This document shows positions 1-45,570 of a DNA stretch of 64,000 nucleotides, piece by piece (position 1 is the stretch's first letter; every line of letters starts with the position of its first letter). Position numbers and translations under genes: made by a program. Below the pieces are notes generated by a model. It was not told the origin of the DNA and made no database searches. It saw only the letters and a program-made list of their open reading frames with translations. This DNA comes from an uncultured bacterium (GTDB taxonomy: Bacteria > Patescibacteriota > Minisyncoccia > Moranbacterales > UBA2206). The stretch is from contig CAIKZD010000009.1 of assembly GCA_903831805.1 (NCBI GenBank), positions 72,786 through 136,785 on the forward strand, given 5' to 3'.

Positions 1-946
<946 letters not shown>

Positions 947-2051: not shown

Positions 2052-2114
2052 TTTAGTTTATTGTGTAGCTATTCGGAGGTACAACCTCGGGGACAAAAGA
2101 GGTTGGACCGCATA

Positions 2115-2145
2115 AAAAACCCTTCGCTAATGCGAAGGGTTTTTG
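2115..2145. terminator. bidirectional rho-independent terminator between convergent genes
   Basis: AAAAAACCCTTCGC-taat-GCGAAGGGTTTTT; A-tract upstream, T-tract downstream. Confidence 0.65.
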
Positions 2146-2167: not shown

Positions 2168-3199
2168 TTATTCCATCTTACTATTTTCTCCGAACCATTT
2201 TTTATACAAGATGTCATAACTGCCGTTGTCGCGCAATTTGAGGATGGCTAGGTTGATTTTTTCTTTTAGGGGGCTGCCGGTCGGCATGGCTATGCCGTAG
2301 GTTTGCCGTTCAAAAATATCGCCGATCACGTCAAAGAAGCGAGTCTCGCCACTGCTCATGTGATGGAGGAGATTGGGCGCGTCAAAAACGATGGCTTCCA
2401 CTTTTTCATTCTTTAATTTTTTGAAAGCGTTTTCAATTTTTTCCACGGCCACAATTTTGGCACCGAGCCGGTCGAGAGTGTTGATGCTGGTGGAATGTCT
2501 GACCGTGGCCACTTTTTTGCCGCCTAGGTCTTTGTAGCTGCTGATGTTGCCTCTGATTTTTTTCAAGGTGATGATGGAACTGAGTTCGGCGATGAAGATG
2601 CCGAAAAAGATATAGCCGATAAGAATGATGAAGACATCAAAGAGCTTGCCGATCCAAAGGTGCGGGATATAATCGCCGTAGCCAACGGTGCTGATGGTCA
2701 CAAGTACCATCCAAGCTGCTTCAAAAATGCCGGGAAAATAGGCCGAAGAGAAAGCGCCGCCACTCCGGCCCTCGATGAGCCAGATGGCGTTGCCTAAGAT
2801 AAAAACTAAAATTAGAATGGCCAGGAGGGTGGTGAGAATTTTTTTGTAGCCGCTTTTGAAAAATTCCTTGATGGTTTTCAAAACTTTGACGCGGCCGGAA
2901 TTTTTCCCTGTTAGGACTAGAAGTCCGGAATCCAAGGTATAATGGGAAAAGTCGAATATTTTTTCGCGGTCTTCATTGATGGATATGCCGGCCACCGCCA
3001 AGTCTGTTTGGCCATTTTCCAATGCAGCAAAGATGTCTTTCAATCTGACTTCCTTATAGGTATATTCCAAGTCAATTTCTCTGGCAATCATTTCCCAAAG
3101 CTCTATTTCAAAACCTGCAAATTTTCCGTCAGTTTTCATCACCAGTGGCGGAAAAGGACTGACCAGCACTTCCACAGTTTTATTATTTTTGTTTTTCAT
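2168..3199 (-). CDS. GluR0-like ion channel: potassium-channel pore (TVGYGD) inserted between the two lobes of a family-3 solute-binding domain
   Basis: 343 aa. N-terminal SBP_bac_3-like lobe, then M1-pore helix-selectivity filter TISTVGYGDYIP-M2, then second SBP lobe (GGKKVATV...SGETRFFDV...YGIAMP). No N-terminal hydrophobic signal peptide visible. Confidence 0.7.
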   Translation of the reverse strand: MKNKNNKTVEVLVSPFPPLVMKTDGKFAGFEIELWEMIAREIDLEYTYKEVRLKDIFAALENGQTDLAVAGISINEDREKIFDFSHYTLDSGLLVLTGKNSGRVKVLKTIKEFFKSGYKKILTTLLAILILVFILGNAIWLIEGRSGGAFSSAYFPGIFEAAWMVLVTISTVGYGDYIPHLWIGKLFDVFIILIGYIFFGIFIAELSSIITLKKIRGNISSYKDLGGKKVATVRHSTSINTLDRLGAKIVAVEKIENAFKKLKNEKVEAIVFDAPNLLHHMSSGETRFFDVIGDIFERQTYGIAMPTGSPLKEKINLAILKLRDNGSYDILYKKWFGENSKME

Positions 3200-3305
3200 G
3201 CTTTAAATATATCAAGAACTATACATTCTTGCAATAACTGAAATAGCCCAAGCCGATTTTTGTATTACCCGTACTAAGAGCATGTAAAAACTCGCAAGGG
3301 GGTCG

Positions 3306-3650
3306 ATGAGTTTTAAGATAAAAATAGTTCTTTATAATCAACTTAATTCCAATTTTATGAAATACTTAAAGAATGCATCTTTAAGGGGAAAATTCATAAT
3401 GGCTGCGTCTGTTCTGGCGCTGGTGGCCGGCTTTAGTTTTTTGAGCAGTGGCACCGCCCTAGCCAATGACGAAGATGGCCGCACAGTGATGATCGGTGGC
3501 AAGGAATATGACGTGATGCATGATGGTCAAGGGCCGAATATTATGGTGAATGGCCAAACATATTATCTGAACACTATGGACGATGATAATTCGGTAATGG
3601 TCGGCACACATTCCTATATGGTCCAAGATGACAACGACGCCGATGACTAA
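3306..3650 (+). CDS. small secreted acidic protein, hypothetical
   Basis: Signal peptide MAASVLALVAGFSFLSSGTALA; D/N-rich C-terminus. The true start may be internal (MKYLKN at about 3357 or MAAS at about 3390). Confidence 0.45.
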   Translation: MSFKIKIVLYNQLNSNFMKYLKNASLRGKFIMAASVLALVAGFSFLSSGTALANDEDGRTVMIGGKEYDVMHDGQGPNIMVNGQTYYLNTMDDDNSVMVGTHSYMVQDDNDADD

Positions 3651-6755: not shown

Positions 6756-6910
6756 AATTACTTTATGTCTAATCCCATTTCTCGTGAAAGGGGATTAGCA
6801 TAAGGTTGTTGAGGATAGTAATTTGACAACTGAATATATAAAATTATGTCCGCGCAATGAATTGTGCGGATTACGAATTGCAAAAAACAAAAAACAATTG
6901 GAGAAGAAAA

Positions 6911-7873
6911 ATGAACTCGACAAGAAGAGCGTATCTTAAGGTGATAGGTAGTGCAGCTCTGCTTTTGCTATCCGGTTGCGGCGCGAAAGTATTAGAGATG
7001 CAAAAGGTCAACTTCGGGGCGAAAATGCCAGATAGTGGCGAAACTTTAGCGAGCAAATCAATGTTGGTTCTGCCTGACAGATCGTTAGGCTTGGAACCGA
7101 CGGAAGATGTCCGTCGAGGAAATACCTCGAATTTTTTGGAGTTTTTCCCGATGCGACTGTATGCCGGGGAATGGTTTCCAGGCAGGTTGCGTTGGGACAC
7201 TTGGACTATCGCTGCGGACGGTACAGAGCACTTTGGTCAGATAATTTTTTCCGGAATGCATCTCTCGGGACGCTATTCTGGAATTAATGTCATCGATGGC
7301 CAAGTGCGGTCTGGGACAACAGCCGTTCTGTCTACTGCGGTGGATTTTATCTATAGCCCAGTAGGCAAGGAGTTGGCGGTGGAACGCGAGAAGTTTATAA
7401 GCGATCCCCAGTATCGCCGGGAGAAAATCACGGCAGTGAATACGGCTAAGAATGGGGAAGTGATCAACCTTAGCTCGCTGACAAGAAATGATGATTTCAA
7501 ATGGTATGTCAAAGTGTGGAATCAGTTGAAAACCCCGGATGGATATTTGCTCGCGCCGTACGGATTGGAAGAAGTGGCAAAAATTCGCGGCATTAATCCG
7601 CAATATAGCTATTTCGAAAAGTTGGTCGGGACGGGCAAGTTTGCCGTTACTCCGACTGCCGATCCAGCGTCCTTGGCGATTGTCAACTCCATCGGAATCA
7701 TGATGGATATGATAAACGCGGCGGATGCGCCGTCGACTGGGTGGGATTTCGGTTCGCAAATCAGTCGCAGACAGGCAGGCTTTGTGACAGAATATGCCAT
7801 GCGCCTAGCTGAGAAAGAAATTCAAAAAAGAGATGATGCTAACGCTAGATTGTTAGCAAAGAAACCAAAATAA
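6911..7873 (+). CDS. lipoprotein, hypothetical
   Basis: Start chosen at MNSTRRAYLKVIGSAALLLLSGC (lipobox LSGC); the ORF-track start at 6857 lies upstream. Confidence 0.5.
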   Translation: MNSTRRAYLKVIGSAALLLLSGCGAKVLEMQKVNFGAKMPDSGETLASKSMLVLPDRSLGLEPTEDVRRGNTSNFLEFFPMRLYAGEWFPGRLRWDTWTIAADGTEHFGQIIFSGMHLSGRYSGINVIDGQVRSGTTAVLSTAVDFIYSPVGKELAVEREKFISDPQYRREKITAVNTAKNGEVINLSSLTRNDDFKWYVKVWNQLKTPDGYLLAPYGLEEVAKIRGINPQYSYFEKLVGTGKFAVTPTADPASLAIVNSIGIMMDMINAADAPSTGWDFGSQISRRQAGFVTEYAMRLAEKEIQKRDDANARLLAKKPK

Positions 7874-7899: not shown

Positions 7900-9498
7900 A
7901 TGAAAAGAGTTTTGTGGATCATGGCGATTCTTCTTTCGCTGAGCGCTTCAACGAGCGTTTGGGCGGGAGAGATTCGTCACAAAGTAGTTGATGGCGATTG
8001 CCTCGGAAAACTTCACGTGAGATATCATGTTCCCGTGAAAAGTATCCAGGAGCGCAACTATCTTGGCAATTCCACTGTCATTAAGCTGGGTTCTGTATTA
8101 TGGATCCCTGTGGTTGAGAAGACGGAGATTGCAAAGGTTAAAATTCAAACACCGGAAAAACCGGTTGCGAAAGCCGAAAAACCTCAGAAAGAAGTTGATA
8201 AAATTCGGCGCGGTGATGCAGTTGTATATTTGGGCATACGCAAGTATAACCCAGAGAACTCAGGGAGAGACAAGACTATATGCTCCCCTGGATTTGCGGC
8301 TTATTTGCTCGGCGTGATTCGAAAGGAGGATATAAAGGACACGAAAGTGATTCTTGACAGCCCCTATGACCCAGCCCCGATTGTTGATCCTAATAAACTT
8401 ATTCAAAAAGGAGATGAGTTTAAAATGACCTCTGGCCTGAATAAGGTTGGAGACTATGAGGCGGGTTTCAATTTTTTCGTTCAAGGTGCCAATGTCTATC
8501 TGCGAGATAAATTTATAACTCGTATATACTGGAGACCAAGTTGTGGCAATTGGATTCGGCACGAAGAAAAGCCAATTCCAACTTCGCCACCTGTTATCGA
8601 AGAAAAACCAACCCTTCCGCCAGTTACAGTAACTCCACCAGCTGAAGAACCACCCTCTATTTTTGTGAATAAAAAAGAAGAGGAAAGGATCTTGATAGAT
8701 CAGGAGTTGGATGTTGGCGGTGGACTGTGGCGAAATGATGATAATTCCGGCCAAGGGGGATGGTGGTTCCTTCAGTACAAATTATATCTCCACCAGTTGG
8801 AGACTGACTTTGCTGGCGGAACGCTTACTCCTGTAGTCGGCGCTTTTGCTCGAGGCGACTTGGGCAAAACAAATGCTGACTTTAAGTGGAACAATGCAGG
8901 TTTTGTTGGTCCACAAGCTGGAGAAATGTGGAATGCCCTGACTGATGCGGGATATCCGCAACAGGTGCAAGTAATGTTCCGTACTTTATGGGAACACTTG
9001 CACGGAGAAAATCCAACTTCGGGTTACGCAAAAACCGAAGATCATTTCCTCCTAGGACTCTACGCCGAGTATTTGCGACAATTCGCGCCAGATCTGATGC
9101 ATATTCTGTATGCCGAGGGTTGGACGGATGTTGCGAGCTCGTTCAAATCAACCTGGAGTGGCGACAAAGCCTCCAGCCGGACGTCTTTCGCGGTTGGCTA
9201 CAAACTTCACAAGCAGTGGAATGATGAGTGGGCCAGTCGTTTCGGTGTTAGTTTCGGTTGGGCCGAGCAAGACAGCAGATGGTCAGCTGGCGCGAACATC
9301 GAGATGCGGTATAATGATTGGCTCATGTTCGGACCAAGCCTGGATTATACCTTGGCATCAGCTATTCAAGGCGCGGCGGGCCACTTCTCTTATGGTCCAT
9401 TCGTTCGGGCTGAATTTCACGAGATTGTGAAGGAAGAACATTCCAAATCACAATCTGACGGAGTTCAACCGTCTGACAAGCCGCTAATCCTTTACTAA
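7900..9498 (+). CDS. secreted LysM-domain protein with proline-rich linker, hypothetical
   Basis: Signal peptide MKRVLWIMAILLSLSASTSVWA; LysM-like segment HKVVDGDCLGKL...IKLGSVLWIP; PTSPPVIEEKPTLPPVTVTPPAEEPP linker. Confidence 0.55.
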   Translation: MKRVLWIMAILLSLSASTSVWAGEIRHKVVDGDCLGKLHVRYHVPVKSIQERNYLGNSTVIKLGSVLWIPVVEKTEIAKVKIQTPEKPVAKAEKPQKEVDKIRRGDAVVYLGIRKYNPENSGRDKTICSPGFAAYLLGVIRKEDIKDTKVILDSPYDPAPIVDPNKLIQKGDEFKMTSGLNKVGDYEAGFNFFVQGANVYLRDKFITRIYWRPSCGNWIRHEEKPIPTSPPVIEEKPTLPPVTVTPPAEEPPSIFVNKKEEERILIDQELDVGGGLWRNDDNSGQGGWWFLQYKLYLHQLETDFAGGTLTPVVGAFARGDLGKTNADFKWNNAGFVGPQAGEMWNALTDAGYPQQVQVMFRTLWEHLHGENPTSGYAKTEDHFLLGLYAEYLRQFAPDLMHILYAEGWTDVASSFKSTWSGDKASSRTSFAVGYKLHKQWNDEWASRFGVSFGWAEQDSRWSAGANIEMRYNDWLMFGPSLDYTLASAIQGAAGHFSYGPFVRAEFHEIVKEEHSKSQSDGVQPSDKPLILY

Positions 9499-45290: not shown

Positions 45291-45475
45291 TGGAGACCCT
45301 GGAAGGATTTGAACCTCCGACACATTTCATCGAATCTATCTGTTATTTTCTTTGGATTTATCGCGCGATTCAATCCAAACAGAATTACAGATACTTCAAT
45401 AAAACTCGCCTACGCGGTACTTTGCTTGGCGTCCGGATTATCATTCCGGTGCTCTACCGATTGAGCTACAGGGTC
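45291..45475 (-). tRNA. tRNA-Ile (anticodon GAT) gene interrupted by a 109-nt insertion between anticodon arm and T-arm
   Basis: 5' part GACCCTG-TA-GCTCAATCGGTAGAGC-A-CCGGA-ATGATAA-TCCGG (45475..45433); 3' part GTGTC-GGAGG-TTCAAAT-CCTTC-CAGGGTC-T-CCA (45323..45291). Acceptor halves are perfectly complementary; the insert spans 45324..45432. Confidence 0.7.
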
Positions 45476-45496: not shown

Positions 45497-45570
45497 TGGC
45501 TGGAGGACCAGGATTCGAACCTGGGATAATGGGGTCAGAGCCCATCGCCTTACCGCTTGGCCACCCTCCA
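45497..45570 (-). tRNA. tRNA-Gln (anticodon CTG)
   Basis: TGGAGGG-TG-GCCAAGCGGTAAGGC-G-ATGGG-CTCTGAC-CCCAT-TATC-CCAGG-TTCGAAT-CCTGG-TCCTCCA-G-CCA; close to E. coli tRNA-Gln. Confidence 0.9.

Follow-up and report, generated by a model that had tools for sequence, protein, structure and literature searches.

The window analysed here is a 64,000-nucleotide stretch of contig CAIKZD010000009.1 from an uncultured bacterium, and the gene in question lies at 2168-3199 on its minus strand. All CTP-synthase homologues with 77-85% identity carry the names Moranbacteria, Moraniibacteriota or Parcubacteria, which places the window in a Moranbacteria-type lineage of the Patescibacteria. The product of this gene is a GluR0-like fusion of a solute-binding protein (SBP) with a K+ channel that carries no signal peptide. 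Its segments follow the order S1-M1-P-M2-S2, and the channel module interrupts the SBP clamshell at its hinge (Table 1). In the Pfam search, SBP_bac_3 matches residues 15-338 (6.9e-28; 97.5 bits against a cut-off of 26.4), and this match encloses that of Ion_trans_2 at residues 129-210 (1.7e-12; 47.5 bits against 22.5). The order of SBP lobe 1, M1-pore-M2 with TVGYGD and SBP lobe 2 had been proposed in an earlier reading of the DNA made from its letters (the sequence-only reading), and it is correct according to Pfam, AlphaFold2 (AF2) and Foldseek. That reading had also named SBP_bac_3 and Lig_chan as the profiles to be compared; the first is well above its cut-off, but Lig_chan (PF00060) stays below its gathering cut-off, at 24.9 against 30.8 bits. 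Lig_chan-Glu_bd is just under its own (29.3 against 30). The top NCBIfam match is GlnH (2e-46), whose 158.8 bits lie far below the equivalog cut-off of 303.

The AF2 monomer model, which was calculated from an alignment of 71 homologues, has a mean predicted local distance difference test score (pLDDT) of 91.9. In this model, β1 starts from residue 9, and there are exactly two long transmembrane (TM) helices and a pore helix, with no other TM segment. When the model is compared with the PDB by Foldseek, the matches are glutamine-binding proteins (GlnBP, template modelling score TMt 0.89-0.93), the ligand-binding core of Nostoc punctiforme GluR0 (2pyy, root-mean-square deviation (rmsd) 1.7 Å), and many AMPA-receptor chains that comprise the ligand-binding domain (LBD) and the TM domain (TMq up to 0.68). 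Among solved structures, phmmer gives 2PYY (9.2e-39) and E. coli GlnBP (2.5e-37) as the best relatives, followed by the slr1257 LBD (2e-11) and GluD/NMDA chains (1e-10 to 1e-14). The homology to the SBP fold, on which the sequence-only reading depended, is strong by all of these measures. In M2, Gly195 is near-invariant (at least 90% conserved), and we read the stretch FIAELSSIIT as a counterpart of the SYTANLAAF gate motif of ionotropic glutamate receptors (iGluRs). The whole protein is compact (343 aa) and free of cysteine.

The N-terminus, MKNKNNKTVEVLV, has no hydrophobic leader and begins with the Lys-rich stretch MKNKNNK. The highest 19-residue Kyte-Doolittle mean within residues 1-60 is 0.58, compared to 2.66 for M1 and 2.58 for M2. 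The start of the channel is the start of mature GlnBP, as residue 9 aligns with GlnBP residue 6 in the phmmer alignment. TAA is a stop codon in every bacterial genetic code. Because such a codon stands in frame 6 nt upstream of the ATG, an N-terminal extension or signal peptide of the channel is impossible; a TGA lies in the same frame four codons further upstream (translation of 2168-3289, minus strand). An upstream alternative start was considered as a candidate and is ruled out by these adjacent TAA and TGA codons, and likewise at 24 homologous loci. The missing leader described in the sequence-only reading is therefore real, and the upstream start that could have restored a standard GluR0 is excluded. 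Neighbouring genes carry canonical Sec and lipoprotein signals, such as the lipobox-like LLSGC of the open reading frame (ORF) at 6857-7873 and the typical Sec leader of the ORF at 7900-9498, so the host organism uses ordinary export signals.

The only promoter-like site upstream of the channel gene agrees with 9/12 consensus positions plus the TG extension and ends 7 nt before the ATG; it is a weak pattern match, since such matches are no more numerous than shuffle expectation. There is no Shine-Dalgarno sequence, and the channel mRNA may be leaderless or have a very short leader. Downstream, a hairpin that was missed by a simple terminator scan was found by RNA folding (-21.7 kcal/mol on the minus strand, with z = -6.4 on either strand). 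This terminator is common to the channel gene and the convergent DUF975 gene, and the channel gene is consequently monocistronic and looks like a stand-alone unit. A tblastn search found no paralogue of the channel elsewhere in the window.

The absence of a leader could in principle reflect a truncated, mis-started or decaying gene without function, and "pseudogenes" are in fact among the reasons given for leaderless GluR0-like genes by Ger et al. 2010 (PMC2950845). For the window gene this is effectively refuted. The ORF is intact and is accompanied by the promoter-like site and the strong terminator, the identical protein is present on at least 16 contigs from several samples, the confidence of the AF2 model is high, and the invariant functional residues described below recur in more than 100 full-length leaderless homologues (40-52% identity).

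Table 1. Features of the channel gene and its surroundings (positions in the window)
Feature	Position	Strand	Basis
Channel coding sequence, complete, 343 aa, ATG start	2168..3199	-	ORF list, Pfam, AF2, Foldseek
S1, residues 9-105, N-terminal clamshell stretch with Gly71, Ser73, Arg78	2885..3175	-	phmmer to 2PYY, 1GGG
Pre-M1 amphipathic Lys-rich helix, residues 106-116, KVLKTIKEFFK	2852..2884	-	AF2 helix, Lys/Arg count
M1 TM helix, residues 118-143	2771..2848	-	AF2, hydropathy peak 2.66
Pore helix, residues 154-169	2693..2740	-	AF2; within Ion_trans_2 match
K+ selectivity filter TVGYGD, residues 171-176	2672..2689	-	read from sequence
M2 inner helix, residues 182-217, with Gly195 and FIAELSSIIT; then KKIR	2549..2656	-	AF2
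S2, residues 218-340, C-terminal clamshell stretch with invariant Asp273	2180..2548	-	phmmer alignments, invariant columns
In-frame TAA, 6 nt 5' of the channel ATG	3203..3205	-	translation of 2168-3289
Sigma-70-like promoter match TTGCAA, 17 nt spacer, TG-TATATT	3206..3234	-	consensus scan
Bidirectional intrinsic terminator hairpin: A-run, 8-bp GC-rich stem, U-run	2114..2144	both	RNA folding
Small acidic secreted protein ORF	3306..3650	+, divergent from channel	ORF list

Leader status and membrane-flank charges across the family

A search of 5.8 billion protein clusters returned 360 matches. The best 120 of these 360 show 39-52% identity and 87-100% query coverage, nearly all are 323-346 aa long, and their names are almost all those of Patescibacteria (Moran-, Uhr-, Falkow-, Nomura- and Kerfeldbacteria). 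About 110 of these best 120 clusters, defined at 90% identity, start within a few residues of the SBP fold without a hydrophobic N-terminus, typically with MxxKLKVAV..FPPL; a hydrophobic leader is found in only 8. A profile-free scan of 1.84 billion representatives at 50% identity gave 763 proteins at E <= 1e-30. Among the 144 best full-length proteins of this set, a hydrophobic leader is present in 104, and the sequence opens directly with the fold in 32. To be independent of gene callers, the frame was also walked upstream from the aligned start at 80 species-level GTDB loci. The frame is closed within at most 24 codons, with nothing hydrophobic encoded, at 24 of the 80 loci, all of which are labelled as Patescibacteria lineages or are metagenome-assembled genomes (MAGs) of doubtful label. 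A clear hydrophobic leader in an open frame is encoded at 51 of the 80 (Cyanobacteria, Alphaproteobacteria, Acidimicrobiia and others). The leaderless state is evidently a family trait of a large, mainly Patescibacteria clade.

The positive charges that flank the membrane segments differ between the two groups as well. The bias was taken as the number of Lys and Arg in the 22 residues before M1 and the 16 after M2, minus the number in the loop between M1 and the pore helix and the loop between the filter and M2. The window protein has 7 Lys/Arg before M1 (residues 100-121), 1 in each of the two pore loops and 5 after M2, which gives a bias of +10. At the GTDB loci, the bias lies between +3 and +9 (median +7) in the 24 leaderless proteins and between -5 and +1 (median -2) in the 51 leader-bearing ones, and the two distributions do not overlap. 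The mean bias is +5.0 for leaderless and -1.2 for leader-bearing proteins among the 50%-identity representatives, and +6.5 (122 leaderless) and +1.0 (118 leader-bearing) among the 90%-identity clusters. Membrane-flank charges account for nearly all of the alignment columns that discriminate best between the groups. At positions 180 and 181, leaderless proteins have His/Val/Thr where leader-bearing ones have Lys/Arg; on the other hand, position 119 is Lys/Arg in the former and Pro in the latter, and position 216 is Lys/Arg in the former and Gln/Glu in the latter. Positions 111, 147, 152 and 153 behave in the same manner as group-separating charge columns. As far as sequences can tell, flank-charge bias tracks leader status across the family. 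The cysteine content of the LBD was also considered as a marker of the compartment, and no difference was found, the median being 0 in both groups.

Some of the leaderless proteins with positive bias carry labels of other lineages: L015, L017 and L018 are labelled Bdellovibrionales, L031 Gammaproteobacteria, and L011, L022 and L026 Saccharibacteria. Either the clade extends beyond Parcubacteria-type lineages, or these MAG bins are mislabelled.

In a neighbour-joining (NJ) tree of full-length sequences, the leaderless proteins with positive bias form one main clade and a small second clade, and the latter adjoins leader-bearing proteins of negative bias. After midpoint rooting, the leaderless clade is nested among leader-bearing clades with TVGYGD, and this tree, which is not a robust phylogeny, weakly favours a secondary loss of the leader. 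In an LBD-only NJ tree rooted with GlnBP, the leaderless set is not a clade, the root falls beside single sequences, and this tree gives no indication of the polarity. The reverse polarity, in which the leaderless clade is not a secondary flip but a surviving ancestral intermediate of all glutamate receptors, appears improbable to us. If it were true, the SBP-fold sensor would first have been fused, on the cytoplasmic side, to a K+ channel that kept its native orientation, and a signal peptide would later have turned the fusion upside down to give GluR0 and the iGluRs, which would explain the long-puzzling "inverted pore" of the latter. Whichever way the polarity runs, this clade would provide the first natural example of a K+ channel under the control of a cytoplasmic amino-acid sensor of the periplasmic binding protein (PBP) type.

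The K+ filter is not uniform within the leaderless group. TVGYGD is present in the window protein and in 60 of 122 leaderless relatives, and it has been lost in many leaderless Patescibacteria relatives, where TDSFGD (15/122) or longer sequences rich in Gly, such as GLDGALFV, GSPATIMV and GLLTGG, are found. These filter-degenerate members, which include P0007, P0013, P0051, P0069 and P0118 as well as loci L012, L022-L024, L026 and L031, retain the clamshell and both TM helices, and they may be non-selective, non-conducting or partners in heteromers.

Another variation concerns leader-bearing members. P0302, P0320, P0347, P0323 and P0334 (606-722 aa) have an extra N-terminal OpuAC domain, a glycine-betaine SBP (E ~1e-40 to 1e-53), which precedes the SBP_bac_3-channel unit. 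This two-tier extracellular layout of OpuAC and SBP_bac_3 recalls the layers of amino-terminal domain and LBD in eukaryotic iGluRs.

Predicted orientation, ligand site and gating

Since there are two TM helices, both lobes of the clamshell lie on one side of the membrane. The default location of a protein without a leader is the cytoplasm. Because a signal peptide is absent and Lys/Arg are in excess before M1 and after M2, an N-in/C-in insertion like that of KcsA or Kir would be expected, and the positive-inside counts (7 and 5 in the flanks compared to 1 and 1 in the loops) strongly favour this predicted topology. It is likely that the protein is a tetrameric K+ channel gated by a cytoplasmic amino-acid clamshell and placed in the KcsA/Kir orientation, such that the whole protein would be flipped relative to GluR0. 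The cytoplasmic lobes and the K+-channel pore orientation suggested in the sequence-only reading are thus supported as a prediction, by the missing leader and by a positive-inside pattern that has co-switched with it throughout the family. The logic that links leader and orientation fits two published results. PhoA fusions showed that the leader-bearing GluR0 of Synechocystis is oriented opposite to KcsA (PMC13099474), and, according to a review that cites Schönrock 2019 (PMC12332018), the inverse orientation of a viral K+ pore is controlled by fusing a signal peptide to it.

The same observations bear on the conventional arrangement, in which the clamshell would be extracellular and the pore inverted as in GluR0, M1 would serve as a reverse signal-anchor, and export of the 117-residue S1 (e.g. 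by YidC/Sec) would proceed with no cleavable signal peptide. The LBD is extracellular in all characterised relatives, GluR0 and iGluRs (PMC13099474), and the ligand triad described below is unchanged between the leaderless and the leader-bearing group. However, the 22 residues before M1 hold 7 Lys/Arg and the N-terminus starts with MKNKNNK, and such charges block the translocation of an N-terminal tail. Each pore loop, which would then be on the cytoplasmic side, has a single Lys/Arg. In addition, the charge pattern is opposite to that of the leader-bearing homologues, and the loss of the leader has been kept across dozens of divergent lineages. An exported clamshell is accordingly unlikely for the window protein.

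The residues of the ligand site were compared with those of GlnBP in the phmmer alignment. Gly71, Ser73 and Arg78 align with Gly68, Thr70 and Arg75 of GlnBP, which contact the α-carboxylate and α-amino groups, and Asp273 aligns with Asp157, which contacts the α-ammonium group. Arg78 and Asp273 do not vary among 71 sequences at 40-52% identity, Gly71 and Ser/Thr73 hardly vary, and the triad of Arg78, Asp273 and Ser/Thr73 is kept in leaderless and leader-bearing groups alike. This pattern is the signature of α-amino-acid binding in this SBP class and in iGluRs. As the residues for the α-carboxylate and the α-ammonium are conserved, the putative ligand of the channel is most likely an L-amino acid. 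In contrast to these contacts, Asp10, Lys115 and His156 of GlnBP, which recognise the ligand side chain in 1WDN, are replaced by Val13, Val233 and Phe272.

These replacements may also be taken to mean that the clamshell is cytoplasmic but that gating does not depend on an amino acid, so that the clamshell would sense another metabolite or would serve as a Kir-like constitutive or regulatory scaffold. The GlnH score of 158.8 against the cut-off of 303 and the loss of the K+ filter in many clade members (TDSFGD, GLDGALFV), which would indicate functional drift, point in the same direction. On the other hand, the α-amino-acid contacts are invariant or nearly invariant over the 71 sequences mentioned above, and a different ligand or a pure scaffold is doubtful in view of this conservation.

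With an amino-acid-gated cytoplasmic clamshell as the preferred reading, we infer the orientation, the tetramer, the ligand class, the direction of gating and the physiological role as follows. The subunits would assemble into a presumably tetrameric, K+-selective channel of GluR0-like build. In the N-in/C-in state, the filter would open to the outside and the M2 bundle-crossing gate would face the cytoplasm, and the Lys-rich pre-M1 helix would lie on the inner leaflet like the slide helix of Kir. S1 leads into M1 and M2 into S2, which places the clamshell at the bundle-crossing end of M2 in either orientation; here, the whole clamshell would be in the cytoplasm directly under the gate. Once an intracellular L-amino acid is loaded between the lobes, Ser73 and Arg78 would contact its carboxylate and Asp273 its ammonium group. 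The clamshell would then close and pull on the M2-S2 and S1-M1 linkers, and the gate would open, as in iGluRs. Finally, the K+ conductance would vary with the amino-acid pool of the cytoplasm. In bacteria, K+ and glutamate form the principal osmolyte pair, and a homeostatic role that links K+ to the amino-acid pool is plausible. The pairing of these osmolytes has been discussed (PMC13099474).

Several points weigh against this interpretation. The positive-inside rule is statistical, and in the representative set some leader-bearing proteins have a positive bias (P0365 +6, P0316 +4 and P0246 +4), so the bias index is not fully diagnostic. The negative bias of the leader-bearing relatives is also weak. 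The Mann-Whitney P for the bias of leaderless against leader-bearing proteins, at ~1e-11 to 1e-12, overstates independence because there were 1 or 2 evolutionary transitions, and the correlation between charge and leader would essentially go back to one or two events in evolution. In E. coli ProW, an N-terminal tail of ~100 residues crosses the membrane although the protein has no signal peptide; the export of a leaderless S1, as in the conventional arrangement, is therefore not strictly impossible. Cytoplasmic amino acids are present at millimolar concentrations and would saturate a typical micromolar SBP site unless its affinity were much lower. Finally, gene neighbourhood is not conserved at the 22 leaderless loci compared, and it gives no hint of a role.

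Comparison with known channels and binding proteins

Compared to GluR0 (Synechocystis slr1257; Nostoc punctiforme, 2PYY), the window protein has the same S1-M1-P-M2-S2 build with two TM helices and neither M4 nor an amino-terminal domain, a TVGYGD-type K+ filter, a homologous LBD (9e-39, rmsd 1.7) and the α-amino-acid triad. However, GluR0 has a signal peptide, whereas the window protein is leaderless, has the reverse distribution of Lys/Arg and is predicted to be flipped. Among the characteristics of GluR0 and iGluRs, it lacks the leader with an extracellular LBD (the orientation being predicted) and a Lig_chan score above the threshold.

In comparison with the 2TM K+ channels (KcsA, KirBac/Kir, MthK with RCK, MloK1/SthK with CNBD), the predicted N-in/C-in topology with an external filter is the same, and so is the predicted cytoplasmic bundle-crossing gate under a cytoplasmic ligand-binding domain. 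The Ion_trans_2 score is over its cut-off (47.5 against 22.5), the TxGYGD signature is present, and the amphipathic basic pre-M1 helix resembles the slide helix of Kir. The difference lies in the sensor, which is a type II PBP clamshell split around the pore and not an RCK, CNBD or Ig-like domain after M2.

With GlnH/GlnBP (1GGG/1WDN), the window protein shares the SBP_bac_3 type II PBP fold, the top NCBIfam match and the position of the mature start. Unlike them, it has an inserted channel module, has neither a signal peptide nor a lipobox, stays under the equivalog cut-off, and has its Gln side-chain contacts replaced.

The closest counterparts in the literature are the proteins of Ger et al. 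2010 (PLoS One 5:e12827), which are likewise of the GluR0 type and without a signal peptide. In that paper, 4 of 22 prokaryotic GluR0-type channels lacked signal peptides, and "oppositely oriented in the membrane" was one of three possible reasons, given in one sentence with no test (PMC2950845). The paper holds no charge analysis or clade definition and predates the genomes of the candidate phyla radiation (CPR). A full-text search, which left most subscription journals outside, found no paper that links GluR0-type channels to CPR/Patescibacteria and no description of a cytoplasmic SBP-gated K+ channel, and the remark of Ger et al. 2010 is the sole precedent in the searched literature. What is new here, and shown at the level of sequence comparison, is that the leaderless state defines a large Patescibacteria clade with co-switched flank charges.

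In the textbook view, glutamate receptors arose from an SBP with an inserted, "inverted" K+ channel pore (PMC6385376). If the predicted flip is true, the two groups would be a matched homologous pair in opposite orientations, natural and widespread, in which the roles of the signal peptide and the flank charges in inverting the topology of a whole protein would be directly testable. This has a bearing on the origin of the inverted pore in glutamate receptors. It would also imply a new class of K+ channels gated by intracellular ligands, in which an amino-acid clamshell replaces RCK or CNBD, and, for the CPR bacteria with their very small cells and reduced metabolism, a link between K+ flux and the amino-acid pool. 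In addition, a cysteine-free protein of 343 aa would be a scaffold for biosensor engineering and structural work.

Neighbourhood of the gene and rest of the window

The divergent, small, acidic secreted protein that the sequence-only reading placed next to the channel does exist. Its ORF encodes a signal-peptide-like segment, ..FIMAASVLALVAGFSFLSSGTALA|NDEDG, whose leader ends with ..GTALA, and its start is likely Met18 or Met32. The mature part has 61 residues and a pI of 4.05, with 14 Asp/Glu and 2 Lys/Arg. No Pfam family matches this protein, and its conservation is limited to near-identical contigs. In an all-against-all clustering of ORFs around 22 leaderless loci, no counterpart was found near the channel homologues, and the protein is for this reason probably unrelated to the channel. 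The same clustering showed no shared neighbours around these loci beyond generic ABC ATPases.

At the four closest Moraniibacteriota loci (L004, L006, L007 and L008), the channel gene is located between genes for apparent subunits of a 2-oxoacid:ferredoxin oxidoreductase. This identity comes from reading the sequences, and the arrangement is limited to those four loci and absent from the window.

Two observations concern RNA genes of the window. Positions 1-944 (plus strand) hold the 3' part of a 16S rRNA gene (model 596-1533), and protein-coding genes follow; neither a 23S or 5S gene nor a spacer tRNA was detected in the other 63 kb of the window, and the rRNA genes appear unlinked. At 45294-45475 (minus strand), a full-length Rfam tRNA match (model 1-71, 53.1 bits) is spread over 182 nt. 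This match, which was not called by ARAGORN, adjoins tRNA-Gln at 45497-45570 and could be a tRNA gene that is split by ~110 nt of inserted or intron sequence.

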